DNA of 64,000 nucleotides. It comes from an uncultured Clostridia bacterium (GTDB lineage Bacteria > Bacillota > Clostridia > TANB77 > CAG-508). Location: positions 2,925 to 66,924 of the forward strand of contig CANRED010000004.1 in NCBI GenBank assembly GCA_947629555.1, written 5' to 3'. Position numbers and translations under genes: made by a program. Of the stretch, positions 7,085 through 53,925 are shown piece after piece (positions within the stretch are counted from its first letter, which is position 1; each line of letters starts with the position of its first letter). The notes below the pieces were generated by a model. It saw nothing but the letters and a program-made list of their open reading frames with translations, was not told where the DNA came from and did not search any database.

Positions 7085-7140
7085 AGGGCGTCGTTCCCTA
7101 CATTGCGGGTCGATGTGGGCATCGACCCCTACAATTATTT
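7085..7140 (+). repeat. Two adjacent GC hairpin / CCCTACA elements (a truncated copy plus a full copy) between the two ack paralogs
   Basis: The sequence is gggcgtcgttccctacattg followed by cgggtcgatgtgggcatcgacccctacaatt. The second part is nearly identical to the element at 35641-35672. Confidence 0.6.
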
Positions 7141-8380: not shown

Positions 8381-8556
8381 AAATTTCTCTCCTTTTCTTG
8401 GGCATTCACCTGTATGTACAAGTACACCCATATTTGGTGCGATTAATGTATTATTTTTTATATTAAGCCCGAACAACAGCGGAATCCCTAAAAGTTCTCC
8501 CTGCGCTTGAGGGTTAATATAAAAAATAATACATTATATCGTTAGTTAATTAAAAT

Positions 8557-13558: not shown

Positions 13559-15496
13559 ATGTTAAACAACAAGCTTTATCTGTCTGAATCATCTACGATG
13601 ATGTTGAACGAGATGTTGATGGAAGTACGGGAGTATAATTTCCATACAGTAAATTTCCCTATTTTCCTATACTGTCTTCTCAGTGCCGAAATTGAAAATG
13701 GAGATAATCCATTAGACTCTTATCTGCTTCTTCAAAAAATTGATGAAGAAACCACTGAGGATGTACTTAGTGAGATGATTTTAGACATGCTTACCGAATC
13801 TTCCATACATAGTGGTATTAACCAGGAAGAGGATTTCACCATAGCGACTGAATTAGTATTTAAGGATTCGGAAAATGCTAATTTCTCAATTCTGGTTGAT
13901 GATGTTGTTGCTAAAGTATATGCTGAATTGCTTAAGCTCGTTAATCAATTTAATATTAGTGAGATAGACATAATTCACTTTACTATAGCAATGTTTATGG
14001 CTGAAATCAAACAGTTTAAGGATTTCTTTGAGAAAATTAAATTTTCTTATAACAAAGCAAAAAAATATTTTTCTCCAGAGAAATTCTTACAAGTAGATAG
14101 TTTCATTCCACGTGAGTTATCTTCTTTTTTAGATATTCTAAATAATAAAGTTGACCCATCCATGCCATGTGAAATCTTGATGCGTGATGACGAAACTGAA
14201 TCTCTTTGGAATATTATGCTAAAAAAGAATAAACGGAATGCTATCATTGTTGGTGAAGCTGGTGTAGGCAAAACCGCACTTGTCGAAAAAATCACCTATG
14301 ACATCAATACTAAAAAGTGTCCTAAGGAATTCATTAATTTTAAGGTTATCTCTCTTGATATTAATGCACTTATTGCAGGTACATCTTTTAGAGGTGACGC
14401 TGAGGAGCGCATTATGCAACTTATTGATTTTCTTAAAGAAAATCATGATGTAATTCTTTTTATTGATGAAGTTCACACGATACTTGGTGCAGGCTCATGC
14501 CATGAAGGTGAGATGGACCTAGCCAATGCATTAAAACCTATTTTGGCACGTGGTGATACAATCGTTATTGGTTCTACAACCGTCAACGAGTATCAAAAGT
14601 ATTTCCAAAAGGATGCTGCTCTTTCTAGACGATTTGAAAGAATTAACGTATCTGAGCCCATGTCAAAAGAAGTGTACTACATGATTAAAAATAAGTTAAA
14701 GGCCCTTTCTCAATTTCACGGCGTAAAGATTCAAAAAAGAATTGTTGAATATGCCATCATGATTGCTAGCTGCTTTGCTTTTGATAAGAAAAATCCTGAT
14801 AAAACTCTGGATTTAATTGATAGAGCTATGGTATCAGCCAAAAGAGCTGGCAAAGAATATGTTGACAAAGAAGCAATTCTTAAGAATTTTGACATCTACT
14901 TTAAGAAATGGAACAATATGGACATTGACTCCAGAAAAGAAGTAGCCTATCACGAAGCTGGTCACTATATTGTTGGTAAAGCTTCTGGAAGACTTATTTC
15001 TCATAATTGGCTTGCAGTATCCATAATGCCTGCTGAAGAATACTTGGGTGTTACCGTTTATGAAATTGATGACACCAAAATGCCTTTTCTTAACATCGAT
15101 TATTATATCGATAATATTGCATGTGATTTGGCAGGAAGAGTTGCTGAAAACATATTTAGGAACAGTTACACGTCCGGTGCAAGTATAGACCTATCTAAGG
15201 CAACTGAAACAGCATTTAACGTTGTAACTAAACTTGGTATGGGAAGTGATGCAATTAAAAATCGTATCTACCTCAATACTCAAGAGTTTCCGATGTTCTC
15301 AGAAAAAAGCACAGATACAATCAATGATGAGGTTAATAAACTCATAGATAAAGCTTTTCAGCGTGCTAGCGAATTGCTTAGGGAAAATAATGATATTCTT
15401 GAAGCAATTGTTAAGGCATTACTTGAAAAGCATATTATGAGTGAAGCTGAACTTGATAAAATCTGGAAAAAGGTTGTGAATAAACGTAATTCATAA
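13559..15496 (+). CDS. Soluble chimeric protease made of a double Clp_N-like domain, a ClpA/B/C-type D1 AAA+ domain and an FtsH-type M41 zinc metallopeptidase domain (no TM segment, no D2)
   Basis: The Walker A GEAGVGKTALVEKI, Walker B ILFIDEVHTILGAG and the region GSTTVNEYQKYFQKDAALSRRFERI parallel the ClpE D1 domain encoded at 39886. The C-terminal VAYHEAGHYIVG (HEXXH) and TSGASIDLSKATE match FtsH TAYHEAGHAIVG ... TTGASNDLERAT. The gene is on the plus strand in a minus-strand region, has higher GC and a different codon bias. Confidence 0.7.
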   Translation: MLNNKLYLSESSTMMLNEMLMEVREYNFHTVNFPIFLYCLLSAEIENGDNPLDSYLLLQKIDEETTEDVLSEMILDMLTESSIHSGINQEEDFTIATELVFKDSENANFSILVDDVVAKVYAELLKLVNQFNISEIDIIHFTIAMFMAEIKQFKDFFEKIKFSYNKAKKYFSPEKFLQVDSFIPRELSSFLDILNNKVDPSMPCEILMRDDETESLWNIMLKKNKRNAIIVGEAGVGKTALVEKITYDINTKKCPKEFINFKVISLDINALIAGTSFRGDAEERIMQLIDFLKENHDVILFIDEVHTILGAGSCHEGEMDLANALKPILARGDTIVIGSTTVNEYQKYFQKDAALSRRFERINVSEPMSKEVYYMIKNKLKALSQFHGVKIQKRIVEYAIMIASCFAFDKKNPDKTLDLIDRAMVSAKRAGKEYVDKEAILKNFDIYFKKWNNMDIDSRKEVAYHEAGHYIVGKASGRLISHNWLAVSIMPAEEYLGVTVYEIDDTKMPFLNIDYYIDNIACDLAGRVAENIFRNSYTSGASIDLSKATETAFNVVTKLGMGSDAIKNRIYLNTQEFPMFSEKSTDTINDEVNKLIDKAFQRASELLRENNDILEAIVKALLEKHIMSEAELDKIWKKVVNKRNS

Positions 15497-15527
15497 GTTA
15501 TACTAGCACAATAATTTGTGCACTTTC

Positions 15528-15606
15528 AATAAGGAGAGTCCATATGGACTCTCCTTTTCTATCATAATAAGACAATTTGGGCAGAGAAAATTGACCCAAT
15601 TTTTTA
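15528..15606. terminator. Bidirectional terminator hairpins between the convergent Clp/M41 gene and dxr
   Basis: The hairpin aaggagagtccatatggactctcctt is followed by a T-run. The hairpin ttgggcagagaaaattgacccaa is followed by tttttt. Confidence 0.5.
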
Positions 15607-16752
15607 TATCTTTGCAACACATTCTTCATACGTTTTTTTCTTTACTTCTTCGTCAAATGCTAAGATATCATCTACTGAATTTAATTTTCTTTTTTCATAC
15701 ATATTCATTATTTTTTCTATTCCATTTGGTATGTCTGTGTATTTTATCTTTTTATTCAAAAATGCATCAACTAAAACTTCGTTTGCAGCATTTAAAACTA
15801 CTTGATAACTATGTCCTTTTCTAATTGCTTCATAAGCTAATCTTAAGCATTTAAATTTATTTAAATCTGGCTTTTCAAAAGTTAAATCATGTATATCAAA
15901 TAAATTTATTTTTTGTATTTGATTCTTCTCTAATCTAGTAGGATAATTTAGTGCATATGCTATTGGTATTTGCATAGCAGTTGGTCCTAAGCTTGCCATT
16001 ATTGTTCCATCTTTATATTGTACCATTGAATGTACTATACTTTTTCTATGTACAACTACTTCAATCTGACTTGGATCTACATCAAATAACCATTTTGCTT
16101 CTATTATTTCAAATCCTTTATTCATCATTGTTGATGAGTCTATTGTAACTTTTGCTCCCATGCTCCATGTTGGATGATTTAAAGCTTGCTCCACTGTTAT
16201 GCTATCATTTATTTCTTTATCAAAAAATGGTCCGCCTGATGCTGTTAATAATATTTTATCAATTTTATTAGTTTCTTCTCCCCTTAAGCATTGCATAATT
16301 GCACTATGTTCACTATCTACAGTAAGTAAAGTTGCATTATTTTCTTTTGCTGTTCTCATAATTAATTCTCCACCCGCAACTAATACTTCTTTATTTGCTA
16401 ATGCTACAGTTTTTCCGTTTTTTATCATATTATAAGTAGGCTTTAGTCCAGCAATCCCAACTAACGCTGAAACAGAAATATCAAAATCAACTAATTGAGA
16501 TATTTCTTCCATACCGGTATCTCCATAATATACATTTATGTCTTTAAATATAGCACTTATTCTATCTGCATTTTCTTTTGAAATTATATAAACATTCTGT
16601 GGCTTAAATTCTTCGATTTGCTTTATTAATTTTTCTACATTCTTTCCAGCAACTAAAGTTACTGCTTTAAACAAATTAGGATTTTCTCTTATTACATTTA
16701 ATGTACTATCTCCAATTGAACCTGTAGAGCCAAATATTGCCACTCTTTTCAT
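15604..16752 (-). CDS. dxr: 1-deoxy-D-xylulose-5-phosphate reductoisomerase
   Basis: MKRVAIFGSTGSIGDSTLNVIRENP...LVAGKN is the canonical Dxr N-terminus, and the length is 382 aa. Confidence 0.9.
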   Translation of the reverse strand: MKRVAIFGSTGSIGDSTLNVIRENPNLFKAVTLVAGKNVEKLIKQIEEFKPQNVYIISKENADRISAIFKDINVYYGDTGMEEISQLVDFDISVSALVGIAGLKPTYNMIKNGKTVALANKEVLVAGGELIMRTAKENNATLLTVDSEHSAIMQCLRGEETNKIDKILLTASGGPFFDKEINDSITVEQALNHPTWSMGAKVTIDSSTMMNKGFEIIEAKWLFDVDPSQIEVVVHRKSIVHSMVQYKDGTIMASLGPTAMQIPIAYALNYPTRLEKNQIQKINLFDIHDLTFEKPDLNKFKCLRLAYEAIRKGHSYQVVLNAANEVLVDAFLNKKIKYTDIPNGIEKIMNMYEKRKLNSVDDILAFDEEVKKKTYEECVAKI

Positions 16753-16791
16753 ATTAATATACCTTTCTTTACTCTTTATTCATATATTCTC

Positions 16792-17196
16792 CTATTTAAC
16801 AAAATAGTTATATATATTCATTAAATTGTTTTCATCTTTAAACTTGTTTTCCATAGGACACATTCCTGTTTTATCATTGTTTTGAATGAAATCTACCATA
16901 TTTTTATATTCATAATTTATATTGTTTTCTTCTAAAACGGGTATAGCAAACTTACTTATAGTGTCTGCATATATTGAAGCTACATTAGCTACAGTTAAGA
17001 TACTTCCTGCAACCTTTCCTATTACTTTATCTGCTATTGTTGCACCATTTAAACTATCTTTATTGTTTTTTAGTATAGCTACAATATCTTCCACTCTTCT
17101 ATTGTAATACTCCTTGCATTCGCCATTTTTATATAGTACTACCAAGCTTGCACCTGTACTATATAGTTTTTCTTTTACAATTTCTATATTAGTCAT
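16792..17196 (-). CDS. DUF1893 (TM1506-like) domain protein
   Basis: A 134-aa soluble protein whose pattern GASLVVL...ADKVIGKVAGSIL fits the TM1506 family. The assignment is tentative. Confidence 0.45.
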   Translation of the reverse strand: MTNIEIVKEKLYSTGASLVVLYKNGECKEYYNRRVEDIVAILKNNKDSLNGATIADKVIGKVAGSILTVANVASIYADTISKFAIPVLEENNINYEYKNMVDFIQNNDKTGMCPMENKFKDENNLMNIYNYFVK

Positions 17197-25413: not shown

Positions 25414-25447
25414 GACGGGTTGCATAGTATGCAACCCCTACACTATT
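25414..25447 (+). repeat. GC hairpin / CCCTACA element abutting the dnaE stop codon
   Basis: gacgggttgcatagtatgcaacccctacactattcttcac. Confidence 0.55.
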
Positions 25448-28400
25448 CTTCACAGATTTTTGCATTTTCTTGACCAACTATTTCTTGTATTTGTTGCAAT
25501 AAATCATTTTGATAGAATATTCCTCCTGCCGGTTTTTCTTCCGCTTGATTTACTATTATAACTTGTAAATTATTATTGTCTCCATTAAAGAATTTTAATA
25601 GTCCTCTTAATTTATTTTTTTCTTCCTCATTAAGGTTTGTTATATCTATTTTTAATGCCTTTTTTGTTTGTTTTTTTAATTCTCTTATATTATTTGCAAC
25701 TATTTTTACATCTTCGTCTTCTCTTATGCTAAGTCTTCCTTCTACTAAAACTATGTTGTCTTGCATTAACAAATTAGATGATTTATTATAGCAACTGTCA
25801 AATACAATTACTTCACATGTTCCATATAAATCTTCTATTGTTACAAATGCCATTATTGTGTTATTTTTTGTATATTTTTTCTTTACAGATGTTACAATTC
25901 CCGCATATTTTACTATCTGTCCATCTTTTTCTAATTTATTTTCTTCCATCAACTCTGCCATTTGAATTGTGTTTATATTGGTTTGTGCTTCTATTTCTTC
26001 TCTCATTTTGTTTAGTGGATGACCAGATATATATATACCAAGCATTTCTTTTTCCATTGATAAAAGTTCTTTATCATTAAATTCTTTCATTTCTGTAAAG
26101 TTATATTTTATATCGTCTAATTTTTGCTCCTCTATTTGCAAATCAAACATTGTAACCTGTCCTGCTAAACTTTTCTTTGATGAAGTGTTTATTGTATCTA
26201 ATATTCCCTCAAAAGATGCAAGTAAAGTACTTCTAGTTTGTCCGAATTCGTCAAATGCACCTGCCTTTATTAGTGATTCAATACATTTTTTATTAACAGT
26301 TTCTGACTGTATTCTTTCGCAGAAATCTGTAAAACTTGTGTAATCGCCATTATTCTTTCTTTCTTCTACAATAGCATCTACCGCATTTACACCAACGTTT
26401 TTAACACTGCCTAAACCAAATCTTATTTGATTTCCATATACTGCAAATTTTGTGTAACTTTTATTTATACTTGGTTTTAGTATTTCTATTCCTAGTTTTC
26501 TACATTCATCTATATATATTGGTACTTTATCCAAATTGCCTAAAAAGCTATTTAAAGTTGCTGCCATAAATTCTGCTGGATAATATGCTTTTAAGTATGC
26601 AGTCCTATATGATACAACTGCATAAGCTGCTGCATGTGATTTGTTAAAAGCATATTTTGCAAATTCTGCCATTTCATCAAATATTTTATTAGCATCTGCT
26701 TCACTTATACCATTTCTAACGCAACCCGGTATTATTACATTTCCCTGCTCATCTGTTTGACCATGTATAAAATATTCTCTTTCTTTTGCCATAACATCTA
26801 GTTTTTTCTTTCCCATTGCTCTTCTTACTAAGTCTGCTCTACCTAAAGAATATCCTGCTAAATCTCTTACTATTTGCATAACCTGCTCTTGGTATACCAT
26901 ACAGCCATAAGTTACATTTAATATTGGCTCTAACGCTGGATGAGTATATTCTGCATGTTCTGGGTCTAATTTATTTTTTATATATCTTGGAATTTGATCC
27001 ATAGGTCCTGGTCTATATAATGAAACTCCTGCAATTATATCCTCTAAACTATCTGGCTTTAATTCCTTCATAAAGTTTGTCATTCCAGCACTTTCAAATT
27101 GGAATATTCCGCAAGTTTTTCCTTCTGCCCATAGTTTATACACGTTAGGATCATTCATATCTTTATCAAATTCTACATCTATATTTCTGCACTTCTTTAC
27201 AAATTTTATTGCATCTGATATTACTGTTAGTGTTCTTAAGCCTAAAAAGTCCATTTTTAATAAACCTAGTTCTTCAAGTATTGTCATTGTATATTGAGTT
27301 GATATAGATGTATCGTTTAAATAAAGCGGTACGTAACTTACAACTGGGTCTTTTGTTATAACTACACCACAAGCATGAGTTGATGCTTGCCTTGGCATTC
27401 CTTCCAATCCCATAGCTACATCTAATACTTTTTTAGTTGTTTCATCTGTATCATATAATTCTTTTAGTTCTCTATTTTGCTCTAATGCTTTTTGTATTGT
27501 AATGTGTAACTCAAATGGTATCATTTTAGCCAATTTATCTGTTTCAGCATAAGGAACATCCAATGCTCTTCCAACATCTCTTATAACCATTCTTGCGGCC
27601 ATTGTTCCAAAAGTTATAATTTGTGATACATGGTCTGCACCGTATTTTCTTGCAACATAATCTATAACTTCTTGTCTTCTTTCATAGCAAAAGTCTACGT
27701 CAAAGTCTGGCATACTTATTCTTTCAGGATTTAAAAATCTTTCAAACAGTAAATTATATTTTATTGGATCTATATCTGTAATTCCAATTACATAAGCCGC
27801 TATTGAGCCTGCACCAGAGCCACGACCTGGCCCTACTGATATGTTTTGAGATTTTGCCCAATTTATAAAGTCCCAAACAATAAGGTAATAATCCACATAT
27901 CCCATTTTTTCTATAACAGATATTTCATACTCTAATCTATCTAAAATTTCTTTTGATGGATTTTCTCCATAACGCCTTATTAGTCCATCGTTACATAATT
28001 TTCTAAAATATTCTGCATGGGTTTTATATTCTGGTGGTACATCATAATTAGGTAATTTTGTTACACCAAATTCAAATTCTACATTACATTGTTCTGCAAT
28101 TTTAACTGTATTTTCTATTACTTCTGGTAAATTTTTAAAATACTCACTCATTTCTTCTGGTGACTTTACATAGAATTCGTCTACTGTCATTCTCATTCTA
28201 TCTTCATCACTCATTTTTTTACCAGTTTGAATACATAATAGTACTTCATGATTATATGCATCTTCTTTTTTTAAATAATGGCAATCATTTGTTGCAACTA
28301 ATGGTATATCTAATTCTCTACCTATTTCTATCAATTTTTGATTTGCTAAAACTTGTTCTCTCATACCATTTGGTTGTAATTCTAAATAGTAATCTTCGCC

Positions 28401-28898
28401 AAAAACGTCTTTAAACCACTTAGCAATTTCTTTTGCTTTTTGCATATCTCCTTTTAATATTTCTTTGTTTACATTTCCAGCCAAACAAGCACTTAACGCT
28501 ATTATTCCTTCATGATATTTTTCTAATATTTCAAAATCTATTCTAGGTTTATAGTAAAAGCCTTCTGTAAATCCCATAGAAACTAGTTTAGTCAAGTTTT
28601 TGTAACCTTCATTATTTTTGGCAAGCAATATTAAATGTGCTGGATGATTATCTATATTTGCCTCTTTTTGAAATCTGCTTCTTGGAGCAACATATACCTC
28701 ACATCCTATAATAGGTTTTATTCCTTGTTTTTTACATTCTTTATAAAATTCTATTGCACCAAACATAACTCCATGGTCTGTAATTGCAATAGAATCCATT
28801 CCTAATTCTTTTGTTCTTGCAACTAAATCTTTTATTCTATTAGCTCCATCTAGTAAGCTATACTCTGTATGGACATGTAAATGCACAAAATTTGACAT
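25443..28898 (-). CDS. dnaE: DNA polymerase III subunit alpha
   Basis: MSNFVHLHVHTEYSLLDGA is the PHP-domain N-terminus. The 1151-aa protein has a polymerase core and OB-fold. Confidence 0.95.
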   Translation of the reverse strand: MSNFVHLHVHTEYSLLDGANRIKDLVARTKELGMDSIAITDHGVMFGAIEFYKECKKQGIKPIIGCEVYVAPRSRFQKEANIDNHPAHLILLAKNNEGYKNLTKLVSMGFTEGFYYKPRIDFEILEKYHEGIIALSACLAGNVNKEILKGDMQKAKEIAKWFKDVFGEDYYLELQPNGMREQVLANQKLIEIGRELDIPLVATNDCHYLKKEDAYNHEVLLCIQTGKKMSDEDRMRMTVDEFYVKSPEEMSEYFKNLPEVIENTVKIAEQCNVEFEFGVTKLPNYDVPPEYKTHAEYFRKLCNDGLIRRYGENPSKEILDRLEYEISVIEKMGYVDYYLIVWDFINWAKSQNISVGPGRGSGAGSIAAYVIGITDIDPIKYNLLFERFLNPERISMPDFDVDFCYERRQEVIDYVARKYGADHVSQIITFGTMAARMVIRDVGRALDVPYAETDKLAKMIPFELHITIQKALEQNRELKELYDTDETTKKVLDVAMGLEGMPRQASTHACGVVITKDPVVSYVPLYLNDTSISTQYTMTILEELGLLKMDFLGLRTLTVISDAIKFVKKCRNIDVEFDKDMNDPNVYKLWAEGKTCGIFQFESAGMTNFMKELKPDSLEDIIAGVSLYRPGPMDQIPRYIKNKLDPEHAEYTHPALEPILNVTYGCMVYQEQVMQIVRDLAGYSLGRADLVRRAMGKKKLDVMAKEREYFIHGQTDEQGNVIIPGCVRNGISEADANKIFDEMAEFAKYAFNKSHAAAYAVVSYRTAYLKAYYPAEFMAATLNSFLGNLDKVPIYIDECRKLGIEILKPSINKSYTKFAVYGNQIRFGLGSVKNVGVNAVDAIVEERKNNGDYTSFTDFCERIQSETVNKKCIESLIKAGAFDEFGQTRSTLLASFEGILDTINTSSKKSLAGQVTMFDLQIEEQKLDDIKYNFTEMKEFNDKELLSMEKEMLGIYISGHPLNKMREEIEAQTNINTIQMAELMEENKLEKDGQIVKYAGIVTSVKKKYTKNNTIMAFVTIEDLYGTCEVIVFDSCYNKSSNLLMQDNIVLVEGRLSIREDEDVKIVANNIRELKKQTKKALKIDITNLNEEEKNKLRGLLKFFNGDNNNLQVIIVNQAEEKPAGGIFYQNDLLQQIQEIVGQENAKICEE

Positions 28899-29043
28899 AT
28901 ATTTCTCACCTTTAATAAATTATTGTAATATTTATATCATAAATTATAAAAAAAGAAAAGGGCAAGCCTTTCCTTTTTTATTATATATATTATATATAAT
29001 AATTCATTGCAATATAAAATTGCAATATAATACGGTAATTATA

Positions 29044-29186
29044 ATACGGTTATATATCATTTTTTTAATGAACGAATGTGGGGACCGACAAATTAGAGGC
29101 TATTGCAGAAATTACGAAAGTAAATTTCGGCATATAGCCTCTTATGCAGCCCCGGAGTGAATTAAAAAAATTATATATAACCGTAT
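29044..29186. ncRNA. Candidate structured RNA element (copy 1), with a conserved core enclosed by a long AT-rich outer helix
   Basis: It is homologous to 42805-42945. Both the outer helix and the internal helix (gaggctat/atagcctc here, ctggctgtag/ctacagccag in copy 2) differ in sequence but keep their pairing. A conserved hairpin gaaatttacgaaagtaaatttc is also present. Confidence 0.45.
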
Positions 29187-29225
29187 AAATGTAACTATAT
29201 AAATGTAACTGTATAAAAGTATATC

Positions 29226-30404
29226 TCATTCTTGCATAACCTCATCAATCACACTTGCTAAATATTTCATACTTCCTAAGCATTGCTCCATTGTATTAGC
29301 TGTTGCTCCTACTTCTATAATTAATGCTCCTTTAGATAAGTTTTGATTATATCTTGCTGTGCTTAAATTTATTGGCCTAAAAAGCCCCGGATATAACTCA
29401 TTTCCTTTTGCCTGTAGCTTTACTGCAAATTTTAAATTTTCTCTCCAATTAGGATGTTCTAACCCTCCTGCATCTGTTCCTACAACTATCATTAATTGAG
29501 CAACTACCTCATCATTTATTTTTACAGTAGGTCCATAATCACTTCCGCTTCCCACCGCATCTCTATGTAAATCTATAATTAACTGTGCAGTGCTATTAGT
29601 TAAAATATTTTTTACTGTTCTCATGGAATTGTCATAAGATCCAGAATATGAAGGATAATCATGTAAAGTTGTATCATGTATTACATTATATGCTCTATTT
29701 TTTAAATGATTTTCTAATTCTGTTCCAACTCTAGTTACATTATAGTTTAAATCTGTTGTTCTATAATTCCCTGTCATTTGATAATTAAAACCTTCGCTTG
29801 GTGTGTAGCTCTCACATGCATGAGTATGAAATATTATTATATTCTGTTTATCTTCTAAAGTAATATCTGGAACTAACATGTCTGCAGTTAATTCATAACC
29901 AGATTTATTCTTTATTTCTACACTTTCATAAGAATTTGTATAACTTGCCTTTATATTTTTTTCATCTATAACTTGTGTTACAATATTATCTGGAATTTCA
30001 CTATTTACTACATTATTTCCTTCATCATTCACAATATTATTATCTTCTACAGCTATATTATCTATATCATCTGTTTTATTTGCAACTATTCTATTTTTTG
30101 CATTTAATTGTGAATCTAGAATATTACCTACAAAAGAATTATTAAATATTGTATTTCCTGAACTATTTGAATTATTTAAATATCTTGCACTTGCAATTGT
30201 TGTATCAATACTTTTTAAAAATGAATTAGAGTATATTTGTTCTGTAACTTTTTGTACACTACTTTCTAGTGTCTCTCTTTTTTTTAATGTTATTTGTTTT
30301 ATCAATACTGCTATTATTACTATTATAATAACTGCAATCATGTATTTTAATATTCTTTTTCCATCTACAACTGTAACATTGAACATATATATCTCCTTAT
30401 ACAA
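29226..30404 (-). CDS. spoIIP: Stage II sporulation protein P
   Basis: An N-terminal TM segment is followed by the C-terminal IIFHTHACESYTPSEG...IIDLHRDAV...LIIEVG region typical of the SpoIIP family. Confidence 0.75.
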   Translation of the reverse strand: MYKEIYMFNVTVVDGKRILKYMIAVIIIVIIAVLIKQITLKKRETLESSVQKVTEQIYSNSFLKSIDTTIASARYLNNSNSSGNTIFNNSFVGNILDSQLNAKNRIVANKTDDIDNIAVEDNNIVNDEGNNVVNSEIPDNIVTQVIDEKNIKASYTNSYESVEIKNKSGYELTADMLVPDITLEDKQNIIIFHTHACESYTPSEGFNYQMTGNYRTTDLNYNVTRVGTELENHLKNRAYNVIHDTTLHDYPSYSGSYDNSMRTVKNILTNSTAQLIIDLHRDAVGSGSDYGPTVKINDEVVAQLMIVVGTDAGGLEHPNWRENLKFAVKLQAKGNELYPGLFRPINLSTARYNQNLSKGALIIEVGATANTMEQCLGSMKYLASVIDEVMQE

Positions 30405-35512: not shown

Positions 35513-35640
35513 ATTTTTACCCATATATAAATTTAGTAATCAAAATTTATTTCTTATATGCAAATATGCAAAATATAATACAAAAATTGAACATCCGCTT
35601 CTACTCGTTTTAACTGCCATTACCGGTATTATCGTAACAA

Positions 35641-35672
35641 TATACTTTAACGGGTTGATGTGGGCATCGACC
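35641..35672 (+). repeat. GC hairpin / CCCTACA element
   Basis: cgggttgatgtgggcatcgacccctacagac sits between convergent genes. Confidence 0.6.
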
Positions 35673-35738
35673 CCTACAGACTTTCACCGCGTTTAAGGAT
35701 GTGGCAAATTTTTGTATTATATTTTGCATTATGTTATA

Positions 35739-36956
35739 TTATCTAAGCAAATTAAACCATTTTTCAAATAAATGACTACTATTATTTAGAAATCCCATTT
35801 GTTTTATTTCTTTTTGCGCTATAATATTAATTTTTGCTAATTCTTGGTTGTCTAATTTAAAAACCACTTCTCCTATTACTTGCCCAGACTGTACAGGTGC
35901 AGAAATTTTGTCTGGTATATTTATTTCTTGTGTAATGCTTTTTTCTTGCCCTCTTTTTATCAATACACCCGCATCACTTTCAAATAGTACAGGAAGAGAA
36001 TCTTCCACACCCTTTTCTACTAATACTGTCTTTACAACATCTCCACTATTTCCAAGCTTTTTATAAGAATAATTGCTAAATCCATAATCTAATAGTTTTT
36101 TTGCTTCGTTAAATCTTATTTGACTTGTTGGTCCCTTCATTATTACCGCAATTAAACTTAAATCGTCTCGTGTTGCAGATGCTGATAGATTAAATAAAGC
36201 AATAGAAGTTGAGCCTGTTTTCAAGCCTGTTATTCCATCATAATTTCTTATTAATTTGTTTGTATTTACTAATTCAGATTGACCATCTCTTAAAGAATCC
36301 ATCCATATAGTTGTATAATTTGTTATTGTAGGATGTTTAGTTAATAGTTCTCTCGACATTAATGCAATATCATAGCTAGATGTTACATGCCCATCTTCGT
36401 CTATACCATGGCAATTTTTAAAGGTTGTATCATTCATTCCTAATTGCTTTGCCTTTTCATTCATTCTTACTACAAATTGTTCTTCAGTTCCTGCTAAATA
36501 TTCTGCCATTGCTACTGTACAGTCATTTGCAGATACTACACATATTGCTTTTAACATTTCATTAACAGTTAATTCTTCTCTTGTATCTAGCCAAATCTGT
36601 GAGCCACCCATTTTAGAAGCATTTTCACTACATGGAATTTTTGTTTCAAGTGTTATTTGACCACTATCTAATGCTTCCATAATTAATAACAAAGTCATTA
36701 CTTTTGTCACACTAGCAGGTCGTAACTGTTCATGCATATTGTGGTCATACAAAACCTTACCTGTACTCTGCTCTATTAATACCGCACTACCTGATTCTAA
36801 GTTTAAGAAATTTCCTGTTTCATTTGTATTTGCATTCGTTAGCATTGTTTCATCATAATTAGACCATATAAATTCTATTGCATACACATTTGTATAACCA
36901 ATTAATATTGAAAAAAATAAAAACACAGATAATATTTTCATTAATAATTTATTCAT
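35739..36956 (-). CDS. D-alanyl-D-alanine carboxypeptidase (peptidase S11, PBP5-type)
   Basis: A signal peptide is present. RPASVTKVMT gives the SxxK motif, and there is a C-terminal PBP5_C-like domain. Confidence 0.85.
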   Translation of the reverse strand: MNKLLMKILSVFLFFSILIGYTNVYAIEFIWSNYDETMLTNANTNETGNFLNLESGSAVLIEQSTGKVLYDHNMHEQLRPASVTKVMTLLLIMEALDSGQITLETKIPCSENASKMGGSQIWLDTREELTVNEMLKAICVVSANDCTVAMAEYLAGTEEQFVVRMNEKAKQLGMNDTTFKNCHGIDEDGHVTSSYDIALMSRELLTKHPTITNYTTIWMDSLRDGQSELVNTNKLIRNYDGITGLKTGSTSIALFNLSASATRDDLSLIAVIMKGPTSQIRFNEAKKLLDYGFSNYSYKKLGNSGDVVKTVLVEKGVEDSLPVLFESDAGVLIKRGQEKSITQEINIPDKISAPVQSGQVIGEVVFKLDNQELAKINIIAQKEIKQMGFLNNSSHLFEKWFNLLR

Positions 36957-37062
36957 CTATAACCTCCGTTTTTTACTTAGTTTTAAATTATTAAATATTA
37001 TTCGTGTTTTTATTTTTTATTACAAAATTCCTTTTCCATTCATTTCATTAATTTATAAAAAA

Positions 37063-39103
37063 TTATATATTTATTTTTAATTTTGTATCAACTATTCTTT
37101 TTAACTTTTTATTTTCTTTCTTTTCTAATTTTTCATCATCTAATAAAATGCTTTCTGCAAGGCTTTGAGCTTCTTTTAGTATTGGCATATCCTCAAATAA
37201 GTTAGCAATTTTAAATTCCGGTATACCATGTTGTTTGGTTCCAAAAAATTCTCCAGATCCTCTTAATTCCAAATCCTTTTCAGATATAACAAATCCATCA
37301 TTTGTTTTTGTCATTACTTTCATACGCTCTCTTACTACTTCTGAATTTCCTTGATATTTTAATATACAATATGATTGATATTCTCCTCTTCCTACTCTAC
37401 CTCTTAACTGATGTAATTGTGCAAGTCCAAACCTTTCTGCATTTTCTATTATCATTATGCTTGCATTAGGTACGTTTACACCAACCTCAATTACAGTTGT
37501 AGAAATTAATATATCAATATTTCCATTTTTGAATTCATTCATTATTTCGTCTTTCTCTTTTGGTCTTAGTTTTCCATGTATATACTCTACTCTATAGTCT
37601 TTAAATACTTCATTTTTATATTTTTCAGATAATTCCATTACAGACTTTGCATTTATTTCTTCATTTTCTTCAACTAAAGGGCAAACAATATATGCTTGTC
37701 TTCCTTCATCTATCTGCTTTTTTACAAAATTATTTACTCTATCTGACATTTGTTTTGTTACTGCAAATGTATCAATCTTTTTTCTGTTTGGTGGTAATTC
37801 ATCTATTATAGATATATCCAAATCTCCATATAGTATTAATGCTAATGTTCTAGGTATAGGTGTAGCAGTCATAACTAAAGTATCTGGATTATTGCCCTTT
37901 TCTGATAAAGTTTTTCTCTGTCTTACACCAAACCTGTGTTGTTCATCTGTTACCACTAATCCTAAATTTTTATAAACTACATTTTCTTCTAACAAGGCAT
38001 GTGTTCCAATTAAAATATCAATTTCTCCCAATTTTAATTTTTCTAATATTTCTTCTTTTTTCTTTTTAGTAATACCACTTACCAACAATTCACATTTTAT
38101 ACCTTCGTTTTTCAATATTGAATTAAAACTCTCTAAGTGTTGCTTTGCAAGTATCGCTGTTGGAGCCATTATTGTTGCTTGATATCCACATTTTACTGCT
38201 TTATATGCACAAATCAGAGCCACAATAGTTTTACCAGAGCCCACGTCACCTTGAAGTAATCTATTCATTGCCTTATTTGATTCCATATCTGAGTTGATTT
38301 CTTTTAAAACTTTTTTTTGCGCATTAGTTAATTCAAATGGTAATTTTTTTATCAAATCAGCCATTTTAACCTCTTTTGAAAATTCAACTCCATCATTACT
38401 TGTTGCATACTTGTTTTTTAAATTTAATAAAGTTAATTGCATTGTAAACAATTCTTCAAATACTAGTCTTTTTCGTGCTAAATTATAATCTTCAAAAGAT
38501 TTTGGAAAATGTATGCTTTGTATTGCTTTATTTATATCATATAAATTGTATTTTTCTATAATGTAGTCTGGTAAAACCTCTTCTAATTCATTTTCTACTT
38601 GTTTTAAACCATTATAAATTATTTGTCTAATTACATTTTGAGATAATTCATAAGTTAATGGATATATTGGTATAATTTTCCCTGTATTTTTGCTAATTCC
38701 GTTCTTCATCAAATACAGGAGCATTCATTTCAATTTTTCCTATAGTTCTATTTACCTTGCCATAGAACATATATGAATTACCTAATTTAAATCTTGTTTT
38801 TAAATAAGATTGATTATACCAAGTTATTTGGCAAGTTCCTGTATCATCTCTTACTATTAATTTATATAAAGTAAGGCCTTTTCTAATTCGTATTTCTGCC
38901 ATTTTAGATACGCATATAGCATTTATTAATACAGTTTCTCCATTTACTAACTCAGTAATTTTTTTGGGCTTACTTCTGTCTTCATGTTGTCTTGGGAAAT
39001 ACATAAGCAAATCTTTTAAAGTGTATATTCCAAGTTTATTTAAAAGTTTTACACGATTTGGTCCTACACCCTTTACAAATTTTACGTCATCTGTTAACTC
39101 CAC
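37063..39103 (-). pseudogene. recG: ATP-dependent DNA helicase RecG split by a +1 frameshift near 38706 (the 136-aa wedge-domain ORF plus the 553-aa helicase ORF)
   Basis: The N-terminal ORF VKGVGPNRVKLLNKLGIYTLKDLLMYFPRQHED is the RecG wedge region. The second ORF carries GDVGSGKTIVAL and VVTDEQHRFGV. Removing the C from gaaCgga joins them as ...NAPVFDEEGISKNTGKIIPIYPL. Confidence 0.7.
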
Positions 39104-42206: not shown

Positions 42207-42747
42207 ATGCTAAAACATATTCCAAATATACTTACTATTATGCGATTTATACTAATACCATTTATTATACTATATGCAATACAAGATAATTATATTGCTG
42301 TTGCATTAATTTTAACACTATCTGGTATTACTGATGTTCTTGATGGAAGCATTGCTAGAAAGTATAACTTTATAACAGATTTTGGAAGACTTATAGACCC
42401 TTTAGCAGATAAATGCACTCAAATTTCTGTTTTAGTTGTTTTATGTATAAAAAATATAATTCCTCGTTGGATTATATTTGTAGTAATTATAAAAGAACTA
42501 TTATCAGTAATTGGAGCAATCGTACTTTATGGTAAACAATTAGTTACATCAAGTAAATGGTTTCGGAAAACTTGCAACAGTTACGTTTTACTTAGCCATA
42601 TTATCATCTATGATAATTAGACAATTTAACTTAAATTATAATTTTGATTTATATATTTACTATATAGCAGTTACATTAACAATATTCTCATTTGCAATGT
42701 ATGTAAGGTTATATATAACACATAAATTTATACCAAGAAGTAATTAA
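42207..42747 (+). pseudogene. pgsA: CDP-diacylglycerol--glycerol-3-phosphate 3-phosphatidyltransferase with a +1 frameshift near 42564
   Basis: The CDP-alcohol phosphatidyltransferase motif DVLDGSIARK...GRLIDPLADK is present. The ORF ends abnormally at ...SSKWFRKTCNSY*. Dropping the C from tttCgga gives WFGKLATVTFYLAILSSMIIRQFNL...RLYITHKFIPRSN, a normal PgsA C-terminus. Confidence 0.65.
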
Positions 42748-42804
42748 AATATCATTATAACCAAATTTTGTTGTGGAATAAATTTATCATTAAATAATAT
42801 TATT

Positions 42805-42945
42805 AAAAAAATGTATATATTTTTTCAAGACGAACGAATGTGGGGACCGACAAATTACTGGCTGTAGAAGAAATTACGAAAGTAAATTTCGGCCTACAGC
42901 CAGTTATGCAGCCCCGGAGTGAGCCGTAGAAAAAATATATACATT
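42805..42945. ncRNA. Candidate structured RNA element (copy 2), flanked by a perfect 22-bp inverted repeat aaaaaaatgtatatattttttc
   Basis: See copy 1 at 29044..29186. The core is ~85% identical, and helices P1 and P2 co-vary between the copies. Confidence 0.45.
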
Positions 42946-42980
42946 TTTTAATGTTTTATATAATTTTTTCTTCCAAAAGG

Positions 42981-44123
42981 TCACATATTTCTTAATCTTC
43001 CTACAATTTCAACTAAATTATCAACCAAATAATCCACATCATCTTTTGTATTCTCATCTCCAAAAGTAATTCTAAGCGCTCCATGTGCAATTTCATGAGG
43101 TAATCCTATTGCCACTAATACATGTGATGGATTTAGTGATCCTGTGCTACATGCAGATCCACTAGAAGCACATATTCCTTTCATATCTAAATTTAATAGT
43201 AATGCCTCTCCTTCAATATATTTAAAAGATATATTCGCATTTCCAGGTAATCTATTATTTCTATCTCCATTTACTTTAATTTCTGGTATTCTATCTTCTA
43301 CTTGTGAAATATAGTAATCTCTTAAATCTGTTAACTTTTTATTATATTCATCTATATTTTTATATGCCAACTCTATTGCCTTGCCTAACCCAACAATTCC
43401 CGCTACATTTTCTGTACCCGCTCTTTTATTTTTCTCCTGATGTCCACCATCTTGTAATTTATTAAAATCTATTCCTTCTCTTACATATAATGCACCAACA
43501 CCTTTTGGTCCATAAAATTTATGTGCAGACATAGATAATAAGTCTATTCCTAACTTTTTTACATTTATTTTTACATTACCAACTGCTTGAACTGCATCTG
43601 TATGAAAATATATTTGCTTAGCCTTCGCAATTTCTCCAATTTCTTTTATTGGTTGAATTGTACCAATTTCGTTATTAGCAAACATTATACTTATTAATAT
43701 AGTTTTATCTGTTATTGCATTTTTTAGGTCTTCTAGACTTACTATTCCATTTTCATCCACATTTAAATACGTTACTACAAATCCTTCTTTTTCCAAGCTT
43801 TTACATGTATTTAAAATTGCTGGATGCTCAATTTTACTTGTTATTATATGATTACCCTTACTTTTATTTGCATAAGCAATTCCTTTTATTGCTAAATTAT
43901 CACTTTCACTTCCGCACCCTGTAAAATATACTTCTTTTGGAGAACATCCAATAGCATTTGCAACTTGCTCTCTTGCATTTTCTATAGCTTTCTTTGATTG
44001 TCTTCCTAAACTATACATAGATGATGCATTACCATAATTTATAGAAAAATATGGCAACATTTCTTTTAATACTTCTTCCTTAACTGCAGTAGTTGCAGCA
44101 TGATCAAAATATCGTATAAGCAT
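42981..44123 (-). CDS. Cysteine desulfurase (class V aminotransferase, NifS/IscS-like)
   Basis: FDHAATTAV is present, the PLP-lysine motif is SAHKFYGPKGVGALY, and a C-terminal SSGSACS active-site Cys is present. I set the start at the ATG at 44121-44123. Confidence 0.85.
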   Translation of the reverse strand: MLIRYFDHAATTAVKEEVLKEMLPYFSINYGNASSMYSLGRQSKKAIENAREQVANAIGCSPKEVYFTGCGSESDNLAIKGIAYANKSKGNHIITSKIEHPAILNTCKSLEKEGFVVTYLNVDENGIVSLEDLKNAITDKTILISIMFANNEIGTIQPIKEIGEIAKAKQIYFHTDAVQAVGNVKINVKKLGIDLLSMSAHKFYGPKGVGALYVREGIDFNKLQDGGHQEKNKRAGTENVAGIVGLGKAIELAYKNIDEYNKKLTDLRDYYISQVEDRIPEIKVNGDRNNRLPGNANISFKYIEGEALLLNLDMKGICASSGSACSTGSLNPSHVLVAIGLPHEIAHGALRITFGDENTKDDVDYLVDNLVEIVGRLRNM

Positions 44124-52396: not shown

Positions 52397-52527
52397 TTTT
52401 TATCACATCCTTCCTAGAATTCAAAAAGAATTAGTATATTGCAAGGCAAAATTTGTTTGAAATACCGGAGACGTACAGGTGGTACGCTGAGGATTTTCAA
52501 GCAAATTTTAACACAGCAAGATGCTAA

Positions 52528-53925
52528 TTATTTTTGAATTCTGCCTTTTAGAAACCACACATGTTGTGAAACAATCTTTACATCTACAAGTTTACCTATA
52601 AGGCTTTCATCTCCATCTAATATAACTACTTTATTTGTACTTGTTCTTGCTGTTAAAGTATTTTCATTATTCTTGCTTTTTCCTTCTATTAATACTGTTT
52701 GTACTGTTCCAATATATTTCTTATTATTTTCTTCAATTTGTTGTTCAAATAATGCCTTTAATCTATCAAATCTTTCATGTTTTATTTCTTCTGGAATTTG
52801 ATTTTCCATTCTATCTGCTGGTGTTCCAACTCTTCTTGAATATATAAACATAAATATTTGTTCAAAATTAACTTTTCTTACTACGTCTAGTGTATCTTCA
52901 AAATCTTCTTCCGTTTCTTCTGGAAAACCAACTATTATATCTGTAGAAAAAACTACTTCTGGAATTTCTTTTTTTATTTTTTCTGCTAATTCTATAAATT
53001 GCTCTTTTGTATATTTTCTATTCATTTTCTTTAAAACAGCAGTACTTCCAGATTGTAATGGTAAGTGCAATATTCTTGATACTTTTTTGCAACCTTTTAT
53101 AGCCTGTATAACATCAGCTTTAAAATCTTTTGGGTGAGGAGAAACAAATCGTATTATTTCTATTCCATCTATATCATTTACATCTCTTAGTAAATTAGCA
53201 AAATTATATTCCTTACCATTTACTATTCCACCATTATATGAATTTACATTTTGCCCTAATAAAGTTATTTCCTTATATCCTTCATCTGCTAATTGTTTTA
53301 TTTCTTTTAATATATCTTCAGGTTTTCTGCTTCTTTCTCTTCCTCTTACATAAGGCACTATACAATAAGTACAGAAATTATTGCAACCATACATTATGGT
53401 AACAGACGCCTTTTTATCATCATTTCTCTTTATTGGTAATCCTTCAAAAACTTCTCCATCTATATCTAAAATATCCTGTACCTTTTTTTGTTTGTTTAAA
53501 ATTTTATATATATCCTCTGGTAATTTATGTAATGTGTGTGTTCCAAAAATTATATCCACATAAGGATAACTTTTGTTTAGCTTTTCTATAATATGTTTTT
53601 CTTGCATCATACAACCGCCAATAGCAATAATAGCATTATTCTTCTCTTTTATTTTTTTATATTCGCCAAGTTTACCAAATAATTTTTCCTCTGCATTTTC
53701 TCTAACGCAACAAGTATTCATTATTATAAAATCTGCTAAATTTATATCTTCTGTTTTTTCATAATTCATTTCTTCTAGCATACCACAAAGTTTTTCTGAA
53801 TCATTTTCGTTTAATTGGCAACCCATTGTTAATATGTAATACTTTAATTTTTTAGTATTTAATTCTTTAACTTTATTCATATATTCTTTTTGTAATTCCA
53901 CTTCTGCATTATTCAACAATATCAT
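52528..53925 (-). CDS. miaB: tRNA-2-methylthio-N6-dimethylallyladenosine synthase (radical SAM methylthiotransferase)
   Basis: The MTTase N-terminal Cys triad (YYILTMGCQLN...C...C), the radical-SAM motif CNNFCTYC and a C-terminal TRAM domain are present. It lies upstream of mutS. The true start may be an internal Met. Confidence 0.85.
   Translation of the reverse strand: MILLNNAEVELQKEYMNKVKELNTKKLKYYILTMGCQLNENDSEKLCGMLEEMNYEKTEDINLADFIIMNTCCVRENAEEKLFGKLGEYKKIKEKNNAIIAIGGCMMQEKHIIEKLNKSYPYVDIIFGTHTLHKLPEDIYKILNKQKKVQDILDIDGEVFEGLPIKRNDDKKASVTIMYGCNNFCTYCIVPYVRGRERSRKPEDILKEIKQLADEGYKEITLLGQNVNSYNGGIVNGKEYNFANLLRDVNDIDGIEIIRFVSPHPKDFKADVIQAIKGCKKVSRILHLPLQSGSTAVLKKMNRKYTKEQFIELAEKIKKEIPEVVFSTDIIVGFPEETEEDFEDTLDVVRKVNFEQIFMFIYSRRVGTPADRMENQIPEEIKHERFDRLKALFEQQIEENNKKYIGTVQTVLIEGKSKNNENTLTARTSTNKVVILDGDESLIGKLVDVKIVSQHVWFLKGRIQK

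Follow-up and report, generated by a model that had tools for sequence, protein, structure and literature searches.

The described systems closest to the repeat reported here are short palindromic repeats of other bacteria. Correia elements of Neisseria and RUP elements of Streptococcus pneumoniae, both MITEs, are 100–150 bp long, non-coding, intergenic and multi-copy (PMC10969869, PMC3184786). Through their inverted-repeat ends the entire unit can fold as one long hairpin, their presence varies between strains and they are found in either orientation. The element shares all of these features. The enterobacterial ERIC/IRU, RU-1, RU-2 and RU-3 repeats resemble it as imperfect palindromes of ~127 bp that are intergenic and often transcribed, with a conserved core, variable presence at orthologous sites and internal indels. 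We know of no transposase for any of these enterobacterial repeats, as is also the case for the element, and to our knowledge there is no report of ERIC arms being built from target sequence or of ERIC flipping in place. ERIC also belongs to a different host phylum and has no sequence similarity to the element.

REP and BIME sequences with their RAYT system provide a further comparison, being extragenic palindromes that lack a target duplication and undergo concerted evolution within a genome, as the element does. REP/BIME sequences are recognised as single-strand hairpins. REPs, however, are GC-rich hairpins of 20–40 nt with a GTAG head and hundreds of copies, while the element is 3 to 5 times longer and has AT-rich arms, a large asymmetric internal loop and no GTAG head. 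The invertons of Clostridioides difficile and Bacteroides resemble it in having AT-rich inverted repeats of ~20 bp around a short segment found in both orientations. Integron attC sites, which lie between gene cassettes and whose imperfect hairpin is closed by R'' RYYYAAC ... R' GTTRRRY boxes, do not describe it: the short forms of the element carry ...AAC/GTT..., the window copies carry GAAC/GTGA, and no cassette array surrounds any copy.

Template-switch (quasipalindrome) mutagenesis differs from all of these in being a mutational process and not an element (PMC8604942, PMC8794818). Switching between inverted-repeat arms homogenises the arms, inverts spacers and makes reverse-complement copies; it builds or repairs perfect hairpins and produces multi-base compensatory changes without G·U intermediates (PMC8604942, PMC8794818). 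Against this background, we consider it most probable (roughly 0.6) that the elements analysed here belong to a small (107–148 bp), non-coding, non-autonomous palindromic interspersed repeat of MITE/ERIC-like character, with a core that acts in cis and is probably recognised in the form of a folded single strand.

Two copies of the element in the window

The window, by which we mean the whole 64-kb stretch of DNA that was analysed, is AT-rich (27.9% G+C) and contains two copies of the element. We refer to the strand carrying the conserved GGGGACCGAC as the A strand, which is the plus strand in both copies. Their features are as follows.

29044–29186, plus strand: copy 1, whole palindromic element, 143 nt, covariance model score 79.1 bits
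29044–29069, plus strand: copy 1 left arm, with locus-specific outer ATACGGT followed by family-conserved TATATAT, C, ATTTTTTT and AAT
29070–29095, plus strand: copy 1 core block A, GAACGAATGTGGGGACCGACAAATTA, 26 nt
29095–29143, plus strand: copy 1 inner helix P3, AGAGGCTAT / ATAGCCTCT, enclosing the block B hairpin
29108–29131, plus strand: copy 1 block B, GAAATTACGAAAGTAAATTTCGGC, 24 nt, hairpin GAAATTAC-GAAA-GTAAATTTC
29142–29160, plus strand: copy 1 core block C, TTATGCAGCCCCGGAGTGA, 19 nt, equal to TTATGCAG-CCCCG-GAGTGA
29161–29186, plus strand: copy 1 right arm, reverse complement of the copy 1 left arm
42804–42951, plus strand: copy 2, whole element, 148 nt, covariance model score 76.9 bits
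42806–42826, plus strand: copy 2 left arm, AAAAAATGTATATATTTTTTC
42832–42922, plus strand: copy 2 core, blocks A, B and C plus both P3 arms
42832–42857, plus strand: copy 2 block A, identical to copy 1 block A
42857–42867, plus strand: copy 2 P3 5' arm
42870–42893, plus strand: copy 2 block B, identical to copy 1 block B
42894–42904, plus strand: copy 2 P3 3' arm
42904–42922, plus strand: copy 2 block C, identical to copy 1 block C
42929–42949, plus strand: copy 2 right arm, GAAAAAATATATACATTTTTT

An initial annotation of this DNA had described two elements with a common core, and the core is indeed shared, as three identical blocks of 26, 24 and 19 nt. Blocks A and C occur exactly twice each in the window and in none of 100 shuffles. 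The boundaries proposed for copy 1 (29044–29186) hold; those proposed for copy 2 (42805–42945) need adjusting to 42804–42951, and the block B hairpin reads gaaattacgaaag and not gaaatttacgaaag as first written. The annotation was right that the internal helix differs between copies and stays paired: P3 is AGAGGCUAU/AUAGCCUCU in copy 1 and ACUGGCUGUAG/CUACAGCCAGU in copy 2, with 3 pairs altered on both sides. Its description of the outer helix as perfect applies to copy 2, where the AT-rich inverted repeat of 21 nt is 100% complementary and extends to 42949 (or to 42951 allowing one indel), but not to copy 1, where the AT-rich inverted repeat of 26 nt contains a single C·T mismatch (C at 29058). 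On either strand, both copies fold with z of about −9.5 relative to shuffles, and the hairpins of the repeat reach −52 to −58 kcal/mol.

Copy 1 lies between spoIIP (29226–30386, minus) and dnaE (25443–28898, minus), 40 nt downstream of the former and upstream of the latter, with its A strand antisense to both. Copy 2 lies between the convergent pgsA and a nifS-like cysteine desulfurase gene (42981–44123, minus). These neighbours are the ones originally named, except that pgsA (CDP-diacylglycerol-glycerol-3-phosphate phosphatidyltransferase; 42207–42750) is split by a frameshift near residue 120. The gene is intact, at 179 aa, in the relative L027. The split is probably not a one-off assembly error, since a 137-aa call recurs in another sample of the window species (L013). 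Exact-protein look-ups of the neighbours of the copies found matching DNA only in metagenome assemblies, and two of the contigs (L011 and L014) terminate inside the element, as would be expected of a repeat or palindrome.

Both sides of copy 1 (29007–29043 and 29187–29214) carry short tandem duplications with units of 13–14 nt (ATTGCAATATAAA x2, ATAATACGGTNATT x2 and TATAAATGTAACT x2). The outer end of the arm is repeated in one of these duplications, and the sister lineage L020 has none. A canonical bidirectional intrinsic terminator, AAAAAAGGAAAGGC TTGCC CTTTTCTTTTTT, is located at 28949–28979 between copy 1 and the start of dnaE.

Family members and the sites they occupy

Further copies were obtained from loci around SpoIIP, NifS and SpoVAD homologues. 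Together they place the family at four intergenic loci, spoIIP-dnaE, nifS-pgsA, spoVAC-spoVAD and Na/Ca exchanger-SerRS, in at least 5 lineages of gut Clostridia that are uncultured, low in G+C and spore-forming; human-gut samples are the source of several. A short form of 114–117 nt that lacks block B was found by a metagenome pattern scan in spoVAC-spoVAD of another low-GC spore-former, and a second, diverged copy sits 4 kb from the spoVAC-spoVAD copy, upstream of the seryl-tRNA synthetase (SerRS) gene. The initial annotation had suggested a search with a covariance model; run over 514 kb of related DNA, our model R1 scored full-length copies at 61.8 bits or more and everything else at 11.6 bits or less, a clean separation, and neither it nor an HMM found additional members in that DNA. 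Copy number appears low, with 2 copies in the 64-kb window and 0 in several 21-kb loci of relatives.

Family members range from 107 to 148 bp, and their most conserved part is the central core, not the ends. Across the 10 distinct copies aligned, GGGGACCGACAA[A/G]TTA is invariant 5' of P3 and T(T)AYGYAG ... GAGT is invariant 3' of it, and the last 16 nt of block A, GGGGACCGACAAATTA, are the same in every family member bar one A/G position. The P3 tip and block B are dispensable, being missing from the short forms and deleted in L021. The CCCCG segment of block C is specific to the window genome, relatives having TTGG, GTGG or CCTAA. In the arms, the inner ~13 nt, (T)ATATAT followed by a T-run, are common to all family members, and the outermost 6–10 nt are different at each locus; the claim that the outer helices differ in sequence is thus accurate for their outermost part and fails for the remainder. 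The conserved unit of each copy is therefore (TA)n, T-run, asymmetric core, A-run, (TA)n, and it is located at (T/A)ATATAT|T sites in intergenic DNA.

A pattern scan of 185,579 reference genomes, one per species, gave five chance matches only, in GC-rich genomes, so the source species or the element is absent from this set. Four pattern scans of viral contigs likewise gave chance matches only, a BLAST search of the 99-nt core against phage and plasmid records gave no meaningful match, and a literature search for the core sequence found nothing relevant. The repeat family is previously undescribed.

Several of the sites are occupied in one lineage and empty in another. The relative L027, with a NifS 87% identical, lacks copy 2 at the nifS-pgsA site and has an unrelated AT-rich terminator hairpin there. 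The spoVAC-spoVAD site is filled in 9 contigs of the L017-type species and empty in 6 contigs of a relative with 96% SpoVAD identity. The SerRS site is vacant in L031, L033 and L034, where the spoVAC-spoVAD copy is missing too, and occupied in L032, L035 and L036; the SpoVAD protein is identical in all six. Written with the inserted part in parentheses, the spoVAC-spoVAD alleles are ...CTTTAAT TAATTTTATATAT|TCCACTG... (empty) and ...CTTTACT TAATTTTATATAT(TTTTTT-core-AAAAAA-ATATATAAAATTA)TTCAAATG... (filled, right flank TTCAAAT). At SerRS they are ...TATATAT AGTTTAATATAT|TTAGATAAATT (empty, right flank TTAGAT) and AGTTTAATATAT(TTTTT-core-AAAAAATATATTAAACT + 10–11 nt filler)TTAGATAAATT (filled, with an A6-TATATTAAACT arm after the core). 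At both sites the outer part of one arm pre-exists at the target and the other arm is its reverse complement. This copying must be templated, because 12–13 nt of perfect reverse complement cannot come from point substitutions selected for pairing.

No direct target duplication flanks any of the 5 distinct insertions, nor does one appear when filled and empty alleles are compared. By parsimony, insertion would be preferred over deletion as the direction of these events, outgroup sequences being unalignable at the sites. If the empty alleles had arisen by slippage deletion between the (AT)n tracts, a short perfect palindrome (X-ATATAT-X') would be expected, and none was seen, so we set this possibility aside.

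The initial annotation had argued that the structure is not what a MITE would show. In spirit this argument does not stand, as the inner arms are conserved in the manner of terminal repeats and strains that are nearly identical differ in whether they carry the element. In being small and non-coding (107–148 bp), multi-copy (4 loci) and polymorphic for insertion (empty alleles), the element behaves as a classical MITE does. It departs from one in three ways: its termini are not fixed, the outer 6–10 bp being flank-derived and different at each locus; it has an inverted copy of the flank in place of a direct target-site duplication; and its core is more conserved than its ends. A parent insertion sequence with matching ends was found neither in ~0.5 Mb of related DNA nor in phage, plasmid and viral sets, and in the neighbourhoods seen none of the copies has a transposase, recombinase or reverse transcriptase linked to it.

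Two of these intergenic intervals hold other genes in other relatives. In one related species the nifS-pgsA site carries a gene for an Rpn/YhgA-like PDDEXK_2 nuclease instead of copy 2 (L028:11415–11976, L029:10083–10764, L030:10047–10608), and the site may be a recurrent insertion point. In a relative with 89% SpoVAD identity, the interval from the Na/Ca exchanger gene to the SerRS gene, which the repeat occupies in other lineages, contains a cassette (L037–L040, ~14000–16850) that looks like a diversity-generating retroelement. The cassette consists of a bAvd-family gene and an adjoining ORF of 335–363 aa without a listed domain.

Inversion, deletion and copy-to-copy change

Orthologous copies also differ by rearrangement in place. 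L020, whose SpoIIP is 88% identical, has the same flanks and arms as copy 1 and a reversed core, and the C/A arm mismatch has moved along with the core. At the SerRS locus, L019, L041 and L042 have the opposite core orientation to L032, L035 and L036 between identical arms. Orientation is nevertheless uniform within species: at spoVAC-spoVAD in 9/9 contigs of the L017-type species (L016–L019, L041–L044, L046), at SerRS in 4/4 covering contigs of the same species, and in 5/5 contigs from 5 samples of the window species. This constancy points to occasional inversion and not to rapid phase variation.

These inversions raise the question of an inverton, in which a site-specific recombinase would flip the core between its inverted repeats and so regulate neighbouring genes by phase variation. 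Inverted repeats of 21–26 bp, both core orientations at the same site (at two loci, between lineages only) and assemblies that break inside the element are what such a system might produce, but its other hallmarks are lacking. No recombinase gene occurs in any neighbourhood seen, the promoter signal is not above background, and the spacer of 91–102 bp is short for recombinase synapsis. The species-stable orientation just described and the conservation of the cores, with outer repeats that are locus-specific, set the element apart from invertons. Nor do the positions of the copies suit a regulatory switch, copy 2 lying between convergent genes and another copy within the spoVA operon. We regard an inverton as very improbable.

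Other changes alter the core itself. L021 and L022 encode the same SpoIIP protein, and L021 has a symmetric deletion of the P3 tip that leaves TAGG|CCTA. The L022 copy is a possible orthologue of copy 1, although the flanks of the two do not align. Both window copies read GCAG-CCCCG-GAGT, while L020 at locus 1, L047 at locus 2 and more distant copies read GCAG-TTGG-GAGT. That a single genome shows an identical multi-base change in both of its dispersed copies indicates transfer from copy to copy, that is, concerted evolution, and as a consequence of this change a GGGG/CCCC helix is seen in the window genome only.

The covariation in P3 and the outer arms, and what it implies, can be considered in light of these events. 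The initial annotation had taken paired covariation in two helices as a signature of selection on structure. For P3 the covariation is real: across the 10 distinct copies 97.6% of cells are paired and 5/9 pairs are changed on both sides, a level reached in 0/500 shuffles, and P3 is the only covarying helix of the family. The outer helix, by contrast, is a templated copy of local DNA, and since the empty sites demonstrate templated DNA copying we dropped it as evidence of selection at the RNA level.

The main alternative built on P3 is that the core encodes a functional structured RNA (small, protein-binding or self-cleaving), transcribed from the GGGGACCGAC strand, with the arms serving as a processing or stabilising stem; such an RNA could coexist with mobility. 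Pairing in P3 survives 5 double changes, the two long unpaired strands that flank it are invariant across species, the A strand carries a GNRA (GAAA) tetraloop, and the A strand folds 2–10 kcal/mol better than its complement in 7/8 copies folded. An RNA of this kind, if real, would be new, because no Rfam family matches. The Rfam scan that the annotation had recommended, made with Rfam 15 over the whole window at curated thresholds, returned one tRNA only, and both elements searched at E values up to 10 returned noise only (e.g., 22.5 bits with a plant miRNA model whose threshold is 110); the families covered include twister, hammerhead, pistol, hatchet, HEARO and the IS605-associated motifs. 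Inspection by eye for K-turn, hammerhead and attC-like readings of the conserved loops found the consensus features missing.

Several observations fit poorly with a functional RNA. The orientation of the element relative to flanking genes varies between copies, even at a single locus. Neither element has more promoter-like sites than shuffles do, and a terminator scan calls neither element, its sole match inside being a 5-bp sub-stem in copy 2 (42890–42902, minus). Across its 85 cells P3 has no G·U pair and no one-sided change, and in 8/9 contigs of the L017-type species it contains a G·A mismatch. The other candidate helices, GGGG/CCCC (70.6% paired across the family) and the alternative CCGAC/GUUGG (76% paired), have no double changes. 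Parts of the putative RNA, the P3 tip and block B, can be lost, and the outer stem is a product of DNA copying. We consider a functional RNA rather unlikely. A small protein was also considered, as the copy 1 core forms an in-frame ATG...TGA of 30 codons; copy 2 lacks a start codon, and frame-shifting indels in close relatives (G5/G6, a 1-nt indel, CCCCG/TTGG and a 38-nt deletion) rule out a coding role.

Another role that has been proposed for palindromes such as REP and ERIC is that of a hairpin useful to the host, either a bidirectional terminator or an mRNA-stabilising stem-loop, which here could be a secondary function. The stability of the hairpins would suit it, as would the position of copy 2 between convergent genes, where L027 has its ordinary AT-rich terminator hairpin, and the U-run found at the end of its outer arm in either direction. 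Copy 1, L017 and L019b, however, have no U-run after the stem; copy 1 has a separate canonical terminator beside it, in addition to the negative scan; and for the copy within the spoVAC-spoVAD operon termination would be detrimental. Such a role would also leave the invariant asymmetric core unexplained. There is at most a slim chance that it accounts for the element, and both this and the inverton rank below a functional RNA carried by the core.

We thus return to a palindromic repeat with a cis-acting module as the preferred reading. The arms, their perfection, their extension into the flanks and the spacer inversions would result from template switching (fold-back copying) between inverted-repeat arms during replication or repair, and at least part of the compensatory changes may have come about in the same way. 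Template switching would account at once for the perfect arms, the flank extension, the in-place inversions and double changes free of G·U. By itself it explains neither the arrival at new (T/A)ATATAT|T sites nor the invariant core, and it is for this reason that we favour a repeat over a purely mutational process. The cis-acting module would then be the non-palindromic core, GGGGACCGACAARTTA ... TTATGCAG ... GAGT, which is invariant and surrounds a variable hairpin, and whatever spreads or maintains the element probably recognises this core in single-stranded, folded form, as DNA or RNA. Two observations temper this reading. Block A is invariant across species with strongly diverged proteins, which is unexpected for neutral selfish DNA, save where the copies are young or block A is required in cis, and the covariation of P3 together with the one-strand folding bias also fits a functional RNA.

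A more radical version, which we regard as rather doubtful, is that the repeat is of a new kind, needs no conventional cut-and-paste transposase and spreads by snap-back copying, with a structured RNA or cDNA as a possible intermediate. One copy of the unit (ssDNA, or cDNA of the structured core RNA) would be joined at a (TA)n microhomology and would fold back on its own arm, whereupon a polymerase would copy the target flank in reverse. The outcome would be an "inverted target duplication", with either orientation possible at the same site, and the invariant asymmetric core would be a recognition or catalytic module, and perhaps a novel RNA motif.

Compensatory double changes in two helices usually count as proof that an RNA is functional. 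The filled and empty alleles here show that a single step of reverse-complement copying of local DNA can yield a perfect "covarying" stem of 20–26 bp and that the segment inside it is able to flip, which calls for caution in scans that seek non-coding RNAs. The family shows arm extension, arm homogenisation and spacer inversion at work on a dispersed repeat of natural bacteria. The element also adds a repeat family to a poorly known group of uncultured Clostridia of the human gut, in which such repeats break assemblies and one is located inside the spoVA sporulation operon. The interest would be wider if the invariant core were shown to be active as RNA, or to serve an unknown mobility system as its handle.

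Other hairpins and split genes in the window

The window contains further intergenic elements of similar build, at 8444–8536, 35566–35729 and 52416–52542, in which near-perfect AT-rich inverted repeats (23–27 nt) surround a GC-richer core. All three fold far better than shuffles and none matches Rfam. The hairpin at 52416–52542 has a 78%-identical relative at an unrelated locus of another species (L021:19688–19801). REP-like motifs, in which CCCTACA (GTAGGG on the complementary strand) follows a GC-rich hairpin, as in GGGTCGATGTGGGCATCGACCCCTACA, occur at several intergenic sites, in the window at 7085–7135 and 35650–35680 and in the relatives L021/L022 and L024 just downstream of spoIIP. The lineage seems rich in hairpin repeats.

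The recG gene (37063–39103) is represented by two overlapping ORFs in the window and by 2–3 pieces in relatives (L021, L022, L024 and L028), and dnaE, mutS and vanW are also split in some relatives. These splits could reflect frameshift-prone assemblies, pseudogenes or recoding. At 36912–37018, a 26-nt inverted repeat with 92% complementarity extends over the 5' end and ribosome-binding region of a D-alanyl-D-alanine carboxypeptidase gene. It is 71–73% identical in four related lineages, with shorter pieces at 85–92% in a fifth (L027), and is therefore a possible 5' regulatory structure.
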